Assembly (NCBI RefSeq): GCF_000195755.1
Contig: NC_002937.3
Span: forward strand, 720,001-752,000
Reading direction: 5' to 3'
From: Nitratidesulfovibrio vulgaris str. Hildenborough
GTDB taxonomy: Bacteria > Desulfobacterota > Desulfovibrionia > Desulfovibrionales > Desulfovibrionaceae
DNA: 32,000 nt
The position numbers and the translations under genes are program-made. Within the stretch, counting starts at the first letter, position 1. Each line of letters starts with the position of its first letter. Shown here piece after piece: positions 23,817 to 32,000 of this stretch. Below the pieces are notes generated by a model. That model saw nothing but the letters and a program-made list of their open reading frames with translations, was not told where the DNA came from and searched no databases.

Positions 23817-25454
23817 CTATCTGCGGAGAATCGCCTTGGCGAACTCGTCCTGCACATCGGTGATGAAGGGGATGCCGGTCTCGCGCTCGGTCTCGCGGTT
23901 GCCGGAGGCGATGTCCTCGCGGGCAATCTGGTCGAGGCGGAACTTGCGGGCCCCGGCCATGAGCTGCTGCACACCGGCGCCAAGCTTGTCGAGCATGGTC
24001 CACATGGCGATGGCACCATAGGGCAGGGTCTTCATGGCTTCGGCACCCAGCTTCTGCTGGACGTCGTGGTACCCCGCGAAGATTTCCTCTGCGGTGGAAC
24101 CGAGTTCGCTCACGGTCTTGGGCAGGCTGTCCCAGTTGCCGCAGACCTTTTCGCGGTTCTCGGGCTTGAGGACGCCTTCGATGTTGGAGCCGAGGAAGCC
24201 CGGAATCATCATGGCGCGGCCCATGCAGATGAGCTTGGTGTAGGGTGCGCCAAGGGCCAGTGCCTTGAATATCTGGCTCGGCTTGGCAAAGCCGCCGGCA
24301 AAGGAGAGGTCGACCACCTTCTCGCCGCGTGCGGCAAGGATGGAGGCGTATTCGTGCGCCTTCGAGTGCAGCAGGATGGACGGCACGCCCCATGTTTCCA
24401 TCATGTCCCACGGGCTCATGCCGGTGCCGCCGCCGGAACCGTCGATGGTGAGCAGGTCGAGCTTGCATTCGGTGGCGAAGCGGATGGCCATGGCCAGAGC
24501 TTCCATGCCGTAGGAACCGGTCTTCAGCGAGACGCGCTGGAAGCCGAGTTTGCGCAGGTAGGCGACCTGGTTGACGAAGCTCTCACGAACCTGTTCGTAG
24601 CTGGACAGGTCGGTGTAGCCGAGTCGGCTGTGGCGGGCAAAACCCTTGACCGCTCCGGCCTTGAAGGCGGCCTGTACTTCGGGGCGGCTCGGGTCGGGGT
24701 CGACGAGGTAGCCGCGCTCCTTGAGGAACAGGGCGTAGTCGAGGCTCTTCACTTCGATTTCGCCGCCGATATCCTTCGCGCCCTGGCCCCACTTCAGTTC
24801 GATGATGACCTTGTCGCCGTACTTCTCCGCCACGTATTCGGCCACACCGTTGCGGGTGTCTTCGACGTTGAGCTGTACGATGATGGCACCGTGTCCGTCG
24901 TAGTAGCGCAGATAGCCGTCGATGCGGCGTTCGAGTTCGGGCGCCTTGACGATGCGACCGTTCTTGAGTTCGGCGGCACGGTCCACGCCCACCACGTTCT
25001 CGCCGATGACGATGGGCACGCCGCAGATGGCGCAGCCGGTGGCGAACGCATCCCAGTACTTGGCAGCCACGAAGGTGGAACCGAGGGCGCCGGTCATGAG
25101 CGGGTAGCGGCACGAGGTCTTGTGCTCGGCACCGAACGTGGTCTCGAGGGATACGTCGGTGAACAGGGCGTCGCCCTGCGCGGCCTTGGCTGCATCACCG
25201 CCATTGGCGCCGTAGTTGTACCCCTGAATGCGGAGAGAATTGTAGGACACGCCAACGTGGGTGGTGTTGCCGCTGCCAGCGGTGACGATGCCGAAATCGC
25301 GGGGGTAGAGCGTCTCGCGGCCCTTGAGGCAGGAAAGCCACGTTTCGCACTTGCCCATACAGTCGGCACGGCACAGTGTGCACAGGCCGGATTCAACGAT
25401 ATTGCCACGGTTGGTGGTGCCAAGGACGTCATTGCTCTTCAGCAGCTGGGACAT
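23817..25454 (-). CDS. Glutamate-synthase-related FMN oxidoreductase (stand-alone GltB FMN-domain homologue with an N-terminal Cys cluster)
   Basis: 545 aa with GGAGG upstream. The N-terminal CTLCRADCMGKCETWLSC is a Cys cluster. The central and C-terminal ...LKTGSYGMEALAMAIRFA...LLTIDGSGGGTGMSPWDMMETWGVP... matches the Glu_synthase FMN-domain signature. Confidence 0.85.
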   Translation of the reverse strand: MSQLLKSNDVLGTTNRGNIVESGLCTLCRADCMGKCETWLSCLKGRETLYPRDFGIVTAGSGNTTHVGVSYNSLRIQGYNYGANGGDAAKAAQGDALFTDVSLETTFGAEHKTSCRYPLMTGALGSTFVAAKYWDAFATGCAICGVPIVIGENVVGVDRAAELKNGRIVKAPELERRIDGYLRYYDGHGAIIVQLNVEDTRNGVAEYVAEKYGDKVIIELKWGQGAKDIGGEIEVKSLDYALFLKERGYLVDPDPSRPEVQAAFKAGAVKGFARHSRLGYTDLSSYEQVRESFVNQVAYLRKLGFQRVSLKTGSYGMEALAMAIRFATECKLDLLTIDGSGGGTGMSPWDMMETWGVPSILLHSKAHEYASILAARGEKVVDLSFAGGFAKPSQIFKALALGAPYTKLICMGRAMMIPGFLGSNIEGVLKPENREKVCGNWDSLPKTVSELGSTAEEIFAGYHDVQQKLGAEAMKTLPYGAIAMWTMLDKLGAGVQQLMAGARKFRLDQIAREDIASGNRETERETGIPFITDVQDEFAKAILRR

Positions 25455-25539
25455 GAGACCTCCAGAGGGGGGGAATTACGAAGTCGGTGTCTGCCCACTA
25501 ATACCGGTTACGGCAAATGGCAAAATATTGGTGGATGAA

Positions 25540-29237: not shown

Positions 29238-30287
29238 TTACCGAAGGGCCGAGGCGGTGGGGCCAGGGCGGGACGGTGTGGCAGATGCCACGACGGTGAC
29301 GCGGTCAGCCAGAGTGAGGATGGTGTCGGCGTAAATGGCAAGGTTGTTGTAACGACGGAGTGCCTTGTGACGTCCCGCCCTGTCCATTCCCGGCTTCCAG
29401 CCGTTCTCCTTGAGATAGCGCCCGAGACTGGCTACGGCGTCAGCCGTGGTGAAAAGGTCGATACGTCCGTCGCCGTCACCGTCGGCACCGTAGCGCAGCA
29501 GACTCGTCGGCATGAACTGGCAGATACCGATGGCACCATAGATGGAACCGGGCATATGCATCGGGTCGAGACCGTTGGCGCGGGAGTGCCGCAATAACGC
29601 CTTCAACTCGTTGTAGGCCCAGTCGGCCTTGATACGCATCTTCTCCGCCACCCAGTCCTTGTGGTCGTAGGCACCGGGCAATTGCGCCATCCATTCGGGT
29701 ATGGCGTCCGGATTGGTCGTGGAAGCCATGCTTGCGAGCGTCTCGAAGGCATTGCGCTTTCCGAGATTGGTTCCGAGGCGCGTCTCTACGAACAGCAGGG
29801 ACACGGCAACGTTGCGCGGTACGCCGTACGTCGCTTCCATCCGTGAGAAGGCATCAGCGTTGGCCTGAAGAAAAGACAGGCATTTGCGGGCGTTCTCATC
29901 GGTGACGACACCAGGATAGAGCGCGGGGCGCGGCTTCTGCGGCTTTGCCGTCGTGGACGGGGCCGGCTTCAGATATTTGGTGGTGTAGAGTTCCTTGACC
30001 TTGCGGCCCATGGGGTCTTGCGATGCCGTGGGGCCGAGACGCCTGAAGAGGTCGTCGACATCAGGTCCCGCGATGCCGTCTGCCTGCAGGCGAAGCATGA
30101 CGGGCCTCCAGCTTGTGGCAATGTCCTGAGGGGCAGGATAGCTGCCGGGGACCACCGGGGCTGGCTGCGGAGTCTGACTGGGTGTCTCGGGGCGTGAGGA
30201 TGTTCCGGCACAGGCGGTGAGACCGAGGGCCAGAAGACAGGTAAGGAGGGGCCTTACGGCGCGGGCAAGGATGGCTCGACGTTTCAT
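29238..30287 (-). CDS. Lytic murein transglycosylase (MltB/SLT_2-like) lipoprotein
   Basis: The lipoprotein signal is MKRRAILARAVRPLLTCLLALGLTACAG, with lipobox L-T-A-C. The C-terminus ...SLLFVETRLG...GAIGICQFMPTSLLRYGADGDGDGRIDLF..ADAVASLGRYL is typical of the MltB family. Confidence 0.85.
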   Translation of the reverse strand: MKRRAILARAVRPLLTCLLALGLTACAGTSSRPETPSQTPQPAPVVPGSYPAPQDIATSWRPVMLRLQADGIAGPDVDDLFRRLGPTASQDPMGRKVKELYTTKYLKPAPSTTAKPQKPRPALYPGVVTDENARKCLSFLQANADAFSRMEATYGVPRNVAVSLLFVETRLGTNLGKRNAFETLASMASTTNPDAIPEWMAQLPGAYDHKDWVAEKMRIKADWAYNELKALLRHSRANGLDPMHMPGSIYGAIGICQFMPTSLLRYGADGDGDGRIDLFTTADAVASLGRYLKENGWKPGMDRAGRHKALRRYNNLAIYADTILTLADRVTVVASATPSRPGPTASALR

Positions 30288-30336
30288 GTGCTGAAGATAC
30301 TCCAGCCCTTCTGGCGGTGCAAGGCGGCAGCGGGGG

Positions 30337-30380
30337 AAAAGGTCGAAGCCTCCGGGATGGGGGGGTATCCCGGAGGCTTC
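30337..30380 (-). terminator. Terminator-like hairpin with a C7 loop
   Basis: The minus strand reads GAAGCCTCCGGGAT-ACCCCCCC-ATCCCGGAGGCTTC, a perfect 14-bp stem, followed by GACCTTTTCC. Confidence 0.6.
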
Positions 30381-30488
30381 GCAGGAAGGAACAGGCCGGT
30401 CTCCGCTGGGGGGGGAGTGGCGGAGGGCCGTGAACCGACATGGAACCGGGATGGTCGGGGGGGATGACCATCAAGAACCGGCTCCTGC
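30337..30488 (-). ncRNA. Candidate sigma-54-dependent small RNA with three stem-loops carrying C7/C8/C7 loops
   Basis: It lies downstream of a perfect -24/-12 promoter. The hairpins are at 30472..30450, 30425..30401 and 30380..30345 (the terminator). There is no credible ORF. The ends are inferred, not measured. Confidence 0.55.
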
Positions 30489-30499
30489 ACTACTGTATA

Positions 30500-30514
30500 G
30501 CAAATGGTGTGCCA
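30500..30514 (-). promoter_or_regulatory. Sigma-54 (-24/-12) promoter
   Basis: The minus strand reads TGGCAC-ACCAT-TTGC, matching TGGCAC-N5-TTGC at all ten specified positions. It lies in an intergenic region 127 nt after the regulator stop and 213 nt before the MltB-like ATG. Confidence 0.8.
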
Positions 30515-30596
30515 TGCTCGTGGTGGGGCCAGATGGGCTTCTGAGGCGGTTTTGTTTGCGGCTGCTAGACGAAAGAGCGGGTGTCTTCGGCGTTTC

Positions 30597-30641
30597 GTGC
30601 GGAAAAGCACGTGCGAATACGCACGGCGTGCGATTGCGCAC
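30597..30641. promoter_or_regulatory. Three tandem 14-bp palindromes, candidate enhancer (UAS) for the adjacent activator
   Basis: GTGCGGAAAAGCAC (30597..30610, one arm mismatch), GTGCGAATACGCAC (30611..30624, perfect) and GTGCGATTGCGCAC (30628..30641, perfect). They lie 83-127 bp upstream of the -24 element. The last site overlaps the regulator stop codon. Confidence 0.55.
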
Positions 30642-32000
30642 TATTTGCGGAGGCGGCGCAGCAGGGCGAAGCGCGAGAGGCCGAGAAGGGTGGCCGCGCG
30701 GGTCTTGTTTCCGTTGCAGCGTTGCAGGGCCTGTTCTACGAGGCGTTCGACGAACTCATGCAGGTTCATGCCCTCGTCAGGGATGCGAAAGTCTTCCGGT
30801 GTCGACGTGAGGACTTCGTTGGCAGGGGGGCCCTCGGACCCGGTCCTGTGGGACACATCGTCCGAAAGCCTGATGGGGAGGACGAGGTGCTCCGGGCGAA
30901 GCAGCGTCCCGTCATGCAGCAGGACCGCGCGTTCGATGGTGTTTTCCAGTTCGCGGACGTTACCCTTCCAGACGGCGCTTTGCAGCAGGGCGAGTGCTTC
31001 ATCGTCGATGCCCGTGAATTGCTTTTTCTTGCGGGCGGCTTCCCGGCGCAGGAAGAGGGCTGCCATCTCCGGGATGTCTTCGCGCCTTTCACGCAACGGT
31101 GGCAGGATGAGGTGCCCGACCCGAAGCCGATGATAGAGGTCGCGTCTGAACAGGCCGTTTTCGACCATCTGCTCGAGGTCGCGGTTGGCCGCGCATACGA
31201 TGCGTGCGCGGAAGTTGCGCCGCTTGAGGCCGCCCAGCCTGTAGAAGGTGCGTTCTTCAAGGACGCGCAAGAGCTTGGGTTGCAGATGCAAGGGCAGTTC
31301 AGCCACTTCGTCCAGGAAAAGAGTGCCGTCGGCTGCCAGTTCGAGCTTCCCCGGCGAGCCTCCGCTCCGGCTTCCGGTGTAGGCTCCCGCCTCGTGTCCG
31401 AAGAGCTCGCTCTCGAACAGTTCGGTGGGGATGGCGGCGCAGTTGAGGTCGATGAAGGGCCTGTCGTCGCCGTCGTGTCCGAAATGGACGAGTCTTGCCA
31501 CGACCTCCTTGCCGGTGCCCGTTTCGCCTTCGACAAGGACGGGTACGGAAGGGTCGGCATGGAAGATGGCGGCTTCTTCGAGGATGCGCCGCATGGCGGG
31601 CGAGGCTGTGACGATGTCTCCGATGCCCGAGACGTTGCGAAGCCGCAGACGAGCCGCTTCAAGGTCCTGCCGCAATGCCGTTGTGGCCTGCGCAACACGT
31701 CCTTCCATGTCGGAACGGAGAGTGGCGTTTTCCGAGACCAGCGCCATATGCTCTGCACAGCGGTCGACCACGATGGCGAGTTCGCGGGCGTTGATGGGCT
31801 TGTTGAGGTAGTCGTAGGCCCCGCGTCGCAGGGCTTCCACGGCTGTCTCCATGTCGCCGTGGCCGGTGATGAGGACCACATTGCTCTTCGCCGTGGCCGT
31901 ATCCGACTTGAGGTGGGCGAGAAGCTCAAGCCCGTCCATGTCAGGCATGCGGATGTCGGTGATTATCAGCGGGTAGAACGTACGGGCCGCTTCTTCGATG
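30641..32000 (-). CDS. NtrC-family sigma-54-dependent response regulator (receiver + AAA+ + HTH); the N-terminus lies beyond the right edge
   Basis: The reading frame stays open to the window edge (...IEEAARTFYPLIITDIRMPDMDGLELL...). It has a canonical phospho-acceptor D and LNKPI. The AAA+ motifs are GETGTGKEVVARLVH, GAYTGS and LFLDEVAELP. The C-terminal HTH is NKTRAATLLGLSRFALLRRLRK. Confidence 0.9.
   Translation of the reverse strand, partial: IEEAARTFYPLIITDIRMPDMDGLELLAHLKSDTATAKSNVVLITGHGDMETAVEALRRGAYDYLNKPINARELAIVVDRCAEHMALVSENATLRSDMEGRVAQATTALRQDLEAARLRLRNVSGIGDIVTASPAMRRILEEAAIFHADPSVPVLVEGETGTGKEVVARLVHFGHDGDDRPFIDLNCAAIPTELFESELFGHEAGAYTGSRSGGSPGKLELAADGTLFLDEVAELPLHLQPKLLRVLEERTFYRLGGLKRRNFRARIVCAANRDLEQMVENGLFRRDLYHRLRVGHLILPPLRERREDIPEMAALFLRREAARKKKQFTGIDDEALALLQSAVWKGNVRELENTIERAVLLHDGTLLRPEHLVLPIRLSDDVSHRTGSEGPPANEVLTSTPEDFRIPDEGMNLHEFVERLVEQALQRCNGNKTRAATLLGLSRFALLRRLRK

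Follow-up and report, generated by a model that had tools for sequence, protein, structure and literature searches.

The small RNA (sRNA) Dv-sRNA2 of Nitratidesulfovibrio vulgaris str. Hildenborough is already known, with a name since 2011 and with a mapped promoter and regulator. Rajeev 2011 (Genome Biol 12:R99, PMC3333781) reported a peak for the response regulator DVU0679 at genome positions 750272-750940 by DNA affinity purification on chip (DAP-chip), validated the DVU0679 binding motif by electrophoretic mobility shift assay (EMSA), and gave Dv_sRNA2, a name credited to Bender (personal communication), as a target of this regulator; its expression was confirmed on tiling arrays, with the comment that "its function is unknown". 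Kazakov 2015 (BMC Genomics 16:919) lists a single DVU0679 target, the "ncRNA downstream of DVU0679", and assigns a GAYTGS loop to the regulator in its main table, while in Kempher et al. the in-vitro-transcribed Dv sRNA2 served solely as a negative-control RNA. None of these three reports describes its structure, C-run loops or targets, and our literature search found no C-rich sRNA of Desulfovibrio and no structural or functional account of Dv-sRNA2 beyond them. Here we have analysed a 32,000-nt stretch of this genome (NC_002937.3, positions 720,001 to 752,000 of the forward strand; hereafter the window, meaning the whole stretch), in which an earlier note had proposed an sRNA on the minus strand at 30337..30514, and we have compared this locus with Dv-sRNA2 and with its counterparts in other Desulfovibrionaceae.

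Loops rich in C are also found in sRNAs of other bacteria. The loops of Xanthomonas sX13 are functional and redundant, and repress, independently of Hfq, mRNAs with G-rich motifs near their start codons. The mycobacterial 6C sRNA binds several mRNAs through its C-rich loops. The Listeria sRNA LhrC is reported to be multicopy and to be induced through the LisRK two-component system under envelope stress.

The locus and its identity with Dv-sRNA2

The elements of the locus, in the order in which they are read on the minus strand, are the following:

30641..32000, minus strand: 3' part of the activator gene DVU0679, which extends past the window end (Pfam matches)
30596..30642, minus strand: three tandem activator-binding palindromes (upstream activating sequences, UAS), identical to the published DVU0679 sites
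30642..30627, minus strand: UAS 1, AGTGCGCAATCGCACG
30625..30610, minus strand: UAS 2, CGTGCGTATTCGCACG
30611..30596, minus strand: UAS 3, CGTGCTTTTCCGCACG
30500..30514, minus strand: sigma-54 -24/-12 promoter TGGCAC-ACCAT-TTGC (consensus match, conserved in orthologues)
30337..30488, minus strand: small RNA Dv-sRNA2, about 152 nt from predicted start to U-tract (fold, covariance model, covariation)
29238..30287, minus strand: DVU0677, an SLT_2 (MltB-like) lytic transglycosylase of 349 aa (Pfam E = 2.9e-49)

A window coordinate plus 720,000 gives the genome position. On this scale the published promoter CATGGCACACCATTTGCTA (genome 750515) is, letter for letter, window 30516..30498 on the minus strand, and the three published DVU0679 sites, listed together with the promoter in Additional files 4 and 6 of Kazakov 2015, are all identical at 30642..30596. 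The distances from these sites down to the DVU0677 ATG (30287) are 355, 338 and 324 nt, as in Table S7 of Rajeev 2011 (PMC3333781), which gives -355, -338 and -324 from DVU0677. The DAP-chip peak corresponds to window 30272-30940 and covers the locus, its row naming both DVU0677 and DVU0679. The flanks agree with the published sRNA as well, with a GAYTGS activator on one side and a transglycosylase-domain gene on the other. Since all four sequences, that of the promoter and those of the three sites, agree with the published ones in every letter, we hold it to be nearly certain that the region is the DVU0679- and sigma-54-dependent sRNA Dv-sRNA2. The proposal of the earlier note, a sigma-54 sRNA made by the adjacent NtrC-type activator, is thus borne out by the identity of the sites and by the published DAP-chip, EMSA and tiling-array results (PMC3333781), and it is further backed here by conservation, covariation, downstream-gene independence and tandem duplication. 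Activator binding and RNA expression rest on the literature; structure, loop conservation and neighbour independence rest on the present analysis. What is new here is the family-wide architecture, the covariation, the invariance of the poly-C loops, the tandem amplification, the independence from the neighbouring gene and the finding that no Rfam family covers this RNA.

DVU0679 has a receiver domain, a sigma-54 AAA+ domain and an HTH_8 domain by Pfam, and the GAYTGS loop is present in the translated open reading frame (ORF). Its stop codon TAG is at 30643..30641, and the promoter begins about 126 nt past it, which bears out the spacing first given (127 nt). The promoter itself was read back where it had been placed, and is the sole perfect TGGCAC-N5-TTGC in the 32 kb (0.09 expected from shuffles); the C of its -12 GC is at 30500, which gives a predicted sRNA start at about 30488, in agreement with the start proposed before. 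The core GTGC-N6-GCAC of the binding sites occurs in three copies at the locus and seven times in the window, with 1.7 expected.

Two details of the published tables concern these same sites. In Additional files 2/4 of Kazakov 2015 the DVU0679 site positions 749933, 749950 and 749964 are mirrored about the DVU0677 start, their true positions corresponding to window 30642..30596; and in the text copy of Additional file 2 the helix-turn-helix (HTH) sequences seem shifted by one row against the locus tags, the C-terminus of the window activator (DVU0679) being printed next to DVU0744.

C-run hairpins conserved in Desulfovibrionaceae

The structural elements of the RNA, taken from minimum free energy (MFE) structures, are given here from 5' to 3':

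30442..30485, minus strand: stem-loop 1, with inner hairpin 30472..30450
30485..30478 with 30449..30442, minus strand: outer helix of stem-loop 1
30472..30466 with 30456..30450, minus strand: inner helix of stem-loop 1
30465..30457, minus strand: loop of stem-loop 1, AUCCCCCCC
30388..30436, minus strand: stem-loop 2 domain, with apical hairpin 30425..30401
30419..30407, minus strand: loop of stem-loop 2, CACUCCCCCCCCA
30337..30381, minus strand: stem-loop 3, the terminator, with perfect hairpin 30380..30345
30381..30367 with 30358..30344, minus strand: 15-bp stem of stem-loop 3
30366..30359, minus strand: loop of stem-loop 3, ACCCCCCC

RNAfold of the minus strand from 30490 to 30330 (161 nt) gives an MFE of -76.4 kcal/mol, compared with -48.3 +/- 3.7 kcal/mol for dinucleotide shuffles (z = -7.5), none of the 200 shuffles being equally stable. 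The fold recovers all three of the perfect stem-loops with C-run loops that had been read from the sequence, and their coordinates were exact. In DNA as GC-rich as this, single runs of seven C are ordinary (the window has 12, with 11.3 expected); what stands out is that 107 nt of one strand hold three of them, each within the loop of a hairpin.

The sequence 3' of hairpin 3, GACCUUUUCC, reads as GAC followed by CUUUU (UUUU = 30340..30337). With no more than four U beyond the stem, past a 3-4-nt spacer, the hairpin does not pass as a terminator in a simple scan; its loop is inside the loop limit of that scan (3-8 nt). A canonical U-tract, and with it a clearer terminator, is present in several orthologues. 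On this strand two ORFs overlap the region, 30284..30610 and 30061..30474, and not the first only, as had been claimed; neither is conserved, and both are taken as spurious, in keeping with the earlier reading of 30284..30610 as a shadow ORF.

Scanning of the sequence collection with the activator protein gave, among the matches listed, paralogues only (33-44% identity), and in a metagenome scan with an alignment specific for the HTH region of the orthologues the RNA was found, among the matches listed, only in the loci L089, L090, L091 and L101. Since these scans gave mostly paralogues, DVU0679 orthologues were taken from a protein search, and their loci were fetched and compared. The orthologue group is large, with at least 120 protein clusters of no less than 56% identity. 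The RNA unit follows the activator stop in 13 further loci across the Desulfovibrionaceae (12 besides L101), L085 and L089 sharing one entry in this count:

L081: activator 88% identical to that of the window
L083: activator 75% identical
L084: activator 70% identical
L169: activator 64% identical
L085, D. subterraneus: activator 63% identical
L089, D. subterraneus: near-identical to L085 over the compared region
L086, Oleidesulfovibrio: activator 62% identical
L090: closest to L086
L087, Megalodesulfovibrio gigas: activator 61% identical
L088, Halodesulfovibrio: activator 59% identical
L091: metagenome contig
L170, uncultured deltaproteobacterium: activator 62% identical
L172: activator 60% identical
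L101: metagenome copy, nearly identical to the window

All 13 keep the arrangement of a -24/-12 promoter preceded by activator sites, beside the activator gene. Each has two or three palindromes and the sigma-54 promoter, and then a hairpin region of 130-230 nt with three to five C-run-loop hairpins, which ends in a hairpin and a U-tract. Three tandem units are present in L170 (3118-3275, 3426-3583 and 3743-3903), flanked by the activator gene on one side and by an SLT_2 gene on the other; every unit has binding sites, a sigma-54 promoter, a C-loop sRNA and a terminator of its own, and the loops are shorter here, C4-C6. No C-loop RNA was found downstream of the activator in a further locus, L171 (58% identical).

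Two of these loci show peculiarities. In L087 (CP006585, 3585-4260) there are five C-runs, and the sigma-54 promoter is about 420 nt upstream of the C-loop domain, with a 114-aa ORF without Pfam match between them; here the C-loop RNA could be transcribed as the 3' portion of a longer RNA, or from another promoter. Within 1600-2100 of L101 two substitutions relative to the window are visible, one in the first binding site (AGTGTG for AGTGCG) and the other changing a G-C pair of stem-loop 1 to G-U (CCTGG for CCCGG).

A covariance model that was based on the MFE structure, with the window and two close relatives as its input, recovers all the C-loop RNA loci, with homologues at E = 3e-36 to 5e-4, and gave nothing credible elsewhere in the 300 kb of fetched DNA. 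One match in the window, at 2361..2502 (15 bits), is in a coding region, lacks C-run loops and was taken as chance. Also set aside was 4190-4420 of L004 (Candidatus Rokubacteria CSP1-6), downstream of an unrelated sigma-54 activator, where seven C-runs are G6/C6 palindromic repeats; partly masked by N, these repeats look like repetitive extragenic palindromes (REP-type) and are outside the C-loop RNA family. The Rfam check that had been suggested for the window RNA was run, and at gathering thresholds no family matches the C-loop RNA in the window or in 11 homologous loci: this RNA is a conserved family absent from Rfam.

In folding, all 15 homologous RNAs beat shuffles that preserve the C-runs (z = -4.1 to -8.2), and 43 of the 58 C-runs occupy hairpin loops with a closing stem of 4 bp or more, compared with 13% in such shuffles. 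Sequence-only MAFFT alignments analysed with RNAalifold aligned the C-runs and mis-registered the stems, and therefore the sequences were re-aligned with the covariance model. In the resulting alignment of five lineages 94.1% of cells are in standard pairs and 21 of 44 pairs are changed on both sides; the alignment has only five rows, of which three are rather close to each other, and had been adjusted to the structure of the model. In shuffles the number is 6.9 +/- 2.1 and none of 500 reaches 21, and structures slid by 1-3 columns give at most 4. All five helices hold compensated pairs, with five and three changes on both sides in helices 1 and 2 (stem-loop 1), four and three in helices 3 and 4 (stem-loop 2) and six in helix 5 (stem-loop 3). 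In the more distant members, compared without an alignment, the terminator stems are wholly different in sequence and still form 11-18 bp around a C-run, with at most one mismatch or bulge. The C-run columns of a 10-sequence alignment are invariant or nearly so while the stems differ, so that the cross-genome comparison called for in the earlier note yielded both compensatory stem changes and conserved C-runs. Between the four closest relatives the lengths of the C-runs are 7/8/7, 9/8/7, 8/7/8 and 9/8/8, and since they differ by 1-2 nt between close relatives, the region is non-coding.

Proposed action and rival explanations

Our overall reading, which we favour with some confidence, is that of a free-standing sRNA of about 150 nt, made on demand by DVU0679 and sigma-54, whose C-loops pair with G-rich mRNAs. 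A two-component phosphorelay with its genes immediately upstream (those of a hybrid kinase and a PAS kinase precede the response regulator gene in close relatives) would activate DVU0679 by phosphorylation, and the regulator would then bind the three CGTGCG-N4-CGCACG palindromes directly past its own stop codon and drive the sigma-54 RNA polymerase to open complex at TGGCAC-N5-TTGC. The transcript is predicted to fold into three stem-loops with 7-8 unpaired C in each apical loop and to end at hairpin 3. By analogy with the C-rich loops of the sRNAs described above, the C-runs would be the functional, sequence-specific elements, most probably redundant seeds for mRNAs from elsewhere in the genome that contain G-runs or are G-rich at the ribosome-binding region, and seed pairing would block translation or alter mRNA stability; a chaperone is probably unneeded because G-C pairing is so strong. 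Both the activation of the sigma-54 polymerase by phosphorylated DVU0679 at this promoter and the seeding of the C-loops on G-rich mRNAs are what we infer, and for action of the loops by pairing with G-runs, an analogy again, we would put the chances a little above even.

Several points weigh against this reading, apart from the small, model-fitted alignment behind the covariation count. The target search within the 32-kb window predicted no target. Runs of five or more G are common there, with about 90 when both strands are counted; the cysK ribosome-binding site (AAGGAGGGGGCAUG) is the single credible one that has such a run, a G5 match only, and those G7-G8 runs that were compared with ORF positions are inside ORFs. 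At the starts of the kinase, activator and SLT_2 genes of 10 loci there is no G-run, which leaves no obvious local target for feedback, so a Qrr-style feedback on the activator is not indicated. The earlier note had suggested pairing of the C-loops with G-rich Shine-Dalgarno sequences, which is plausible by analogy; the A of a canonical GGAGG, however, interrupts pairing with a run made up of C only, and the targets would therefore need true G-runs, not ordinary Shine-Dalgarno sequences. Finally, since the Hildenborough terminator is weak by the simple scan, some read-through into DVU0677 is possible. During the target search we also observed a C7 run at window 25473..25467 (minus strand), immediately 5' of the Shine-Dalgarno sequence of a minus-strand gene starting near 25454 (UUCCCCCCCUCUGGAGGUCUCAUG); it was rejected as a target candidate, being a C-run rather than a G-run.

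The same loops could instead titrate a protein, the RNA being a decoy for a factor that binds C-rich RNA (of the KH type, or Rho through its primary sites), akin to the GGA loops of CsrB/RsmZ for CsrA. The repetition of one motif in 3-5 loops, the variation in loop number and gene copy number, and a motif that stays constant on freely varying stems would all fit such an RNA, as all of these features also mark protein-titrating RNAs, and Rho prefers C-rich unstructured RNA. However, the conserved neighbourhood has no gene for a candidate protein, base pairing is the mode of action of all the characterised bacterial sRNAs with C-rich apical loops that our literature search brought up, and loops of 8-13 nt poorly mimic the long unstructured rut sites of Rho. 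We therefore regard a decoy as unlikely, and the stricter form of the idea, in which the C-run loops are not antisense seeds at all and make up a multivalent decoy with the Rho primary sites as the foremost candidate, as very unlikely. If it were true, a poly-C sponge under two-component and sigma-54 control would tune global transcription termination or RNA turnover, and tandem gene copies would amplify the sponge in some genomes.

The earlier note had offered as its own alternative that the RNA is an attenuating leader: a sigma-54-driven 5' leader of DVU0677, with hairpin 3 as a conditional terminator and regulated expression of the transglycosylase as the output. The MltB-like ATG was found at 30287 as described, and the gene is SLT_2 by Pfam; it is on the same strand as the RNA, the hairpin ends about 50 nt before it, we found no sigma-70-like promoter between the two, and the four-U terminator fails the simple scan. 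The linkage is also common, an SLT_2 gene being 3' of the RNA in seven loci (the window, L081, L083, L084, L101, L169 and L170). Nevertheless, it is not obligatory, and the neighbour is unrelated or convergent in at least six lineages: in D. subterraneus (L085) a periplasmic binding-protein gene is about 280 nt beyond the RNA, in Oleidesulfovibrio (L086), M. gigas (L087), Halodesulfovibrio (L088) and L172 the genes beyond it are convergent, and in L091 an FMN riboswitch (RF00050, 91.3 bits, 2188-2346) comes directly after the sRNA terminator. The copies without an SLT_2 neighbour often have a canonical U-rich terminator, L170 has three complete units, each with its terminator, ahead of the SLT_2 gene, and the published DAP-chip target was assigned to the sRNA, for which a discrete signal was reported. 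Because the RNA is retained next to unrelated and convergent genes, a leader of the MltB-like gene is disfavoured, and as the sole function of the RNA we consider it quite unlikely. DVU0677 is a neighbour and no obligatory part of the RNA unit; the varying downstream feature, the RNA's own terminators and the three complete tandem units of L170 support an independent, free-standing, trans-acting RNA.

That the region codes for a small Pro-rich peptide from an ATG at 30471, with the C-runs as Pro codons and possibly as a stalling leader peptide, is extremely unlikely and in effect refuted by the frame-shifting C-run lengths and the lost start codon: an AGGAG is 10 nt before this ATG and the frame reads MVIPPDHPG...PPPLPP, but the ATG is absent in L081, L083 and L084, the C-run lengths vary by 1 or 2 nt among close relatives and shift the frame, the ORF continues for 137 codons into the SLT_2 gene in another frame, and the paired stem changes indicate selection on RNA structure.

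No output other than Dv-sRNA2 has been reported for this conserved two-component and sigma-54 pathway of sulfate-reducing bacteria, which consists of the upstream kinases (DVU0680/DVU0681) and DVU0679. The poly-C loop motif of the RNA, invariant across the Desulfovibrionaceae, provides a concrete and testable handle on the regulon and, via the regulon, on the signal, and since Rfam has no model for the C-loop RNA, the present comparison provides material for a new family model. What is known of how such sRNAs are made is unchanged by our findings.

Two other RNA elements were observed in the window. A second published sigma-54-dependent non-coding RNA, the "ncRNA downstream of DVU0653", is at 4742..~4540 on the minus strand, with its promoter CTTGGCACGCTTCTTGGTA listed at genome position 724743; it was rejected as a paralogue of Dv-sRNA2, having several hairpins and no C-run loops. 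A Cobalamin riboswitch (Rfam RF00174, 105.5 bits) is at 1631..1811 on the minus strand.

Comparison with described small RNAs

In the way it is produced, Dv-sRNA2 resembles the Qrr sRNAs of Vibrio and their activator LuxO. As in that system, the sRNA gene adjoins that of its own sigma-54 activator, which is a phosphorelay response regulator, multiple copies are possible (three in L170), and several stem-loops end in a terminator. Nevertheless, Dv-sRNA2 has no homology to Qrr, which is absent from its Rfam matches even at E up to 10; its proposed seed is the homopolymeric C loops, whereas that of Qrr is a conserved single-stranded stretch; and no G-run hints at feedback on the activator mRNA. 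Dv-sRNA2 is thus of the Qrr type in its production without being a member of that family. Pxr of Myxococcus is likewise a deltaproteobacterial sRNA of three stem-loops linked to an NtrC-like activator (Nla19), but no sequence similarity between the two is known, and the Pxr loops are not known to be C-runs.

The C-run loops themselves find their counterparts elsewhere. The Xanthomonas sX13 also has three stable stems with three apical C-rich loops, although it belongs to an unrelated phylum and is unrelated in sequence, has a 4C motif instead of the 7-9 C of the Dv-sRNA2 family, and has no known dependence on sigma-54 or on an activator. The 6C sRNA of Actinobacteria (RF01066), whose hairpin loops carry runs of at least six C, is the best sub-threshold Rfam resemblance of our RNA, at 28.9 bits against a gathering threshold of 47 and through hairpin 3 only; it differs in having two loops, in its unrelated lineage and in its type of promoter. 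Redundant C-rich loop motifs are also described for LhrC of Listeria and for the RsaE/RoxS and IsrR class of Firmicutes, whose motifs are UCCC or CCCC, whose promoters are of the sigma-70 type and which have no homology to Dv-sRNA2. What these sRNAs have in common as a class, namely at least two stable stems with C-rich apical loops, is found in Dv-sRNA2, with its loops conserved and its stems compensated, and it can be placed beside sX13, 6C and LhrC in what is a functional class and not a homology family.

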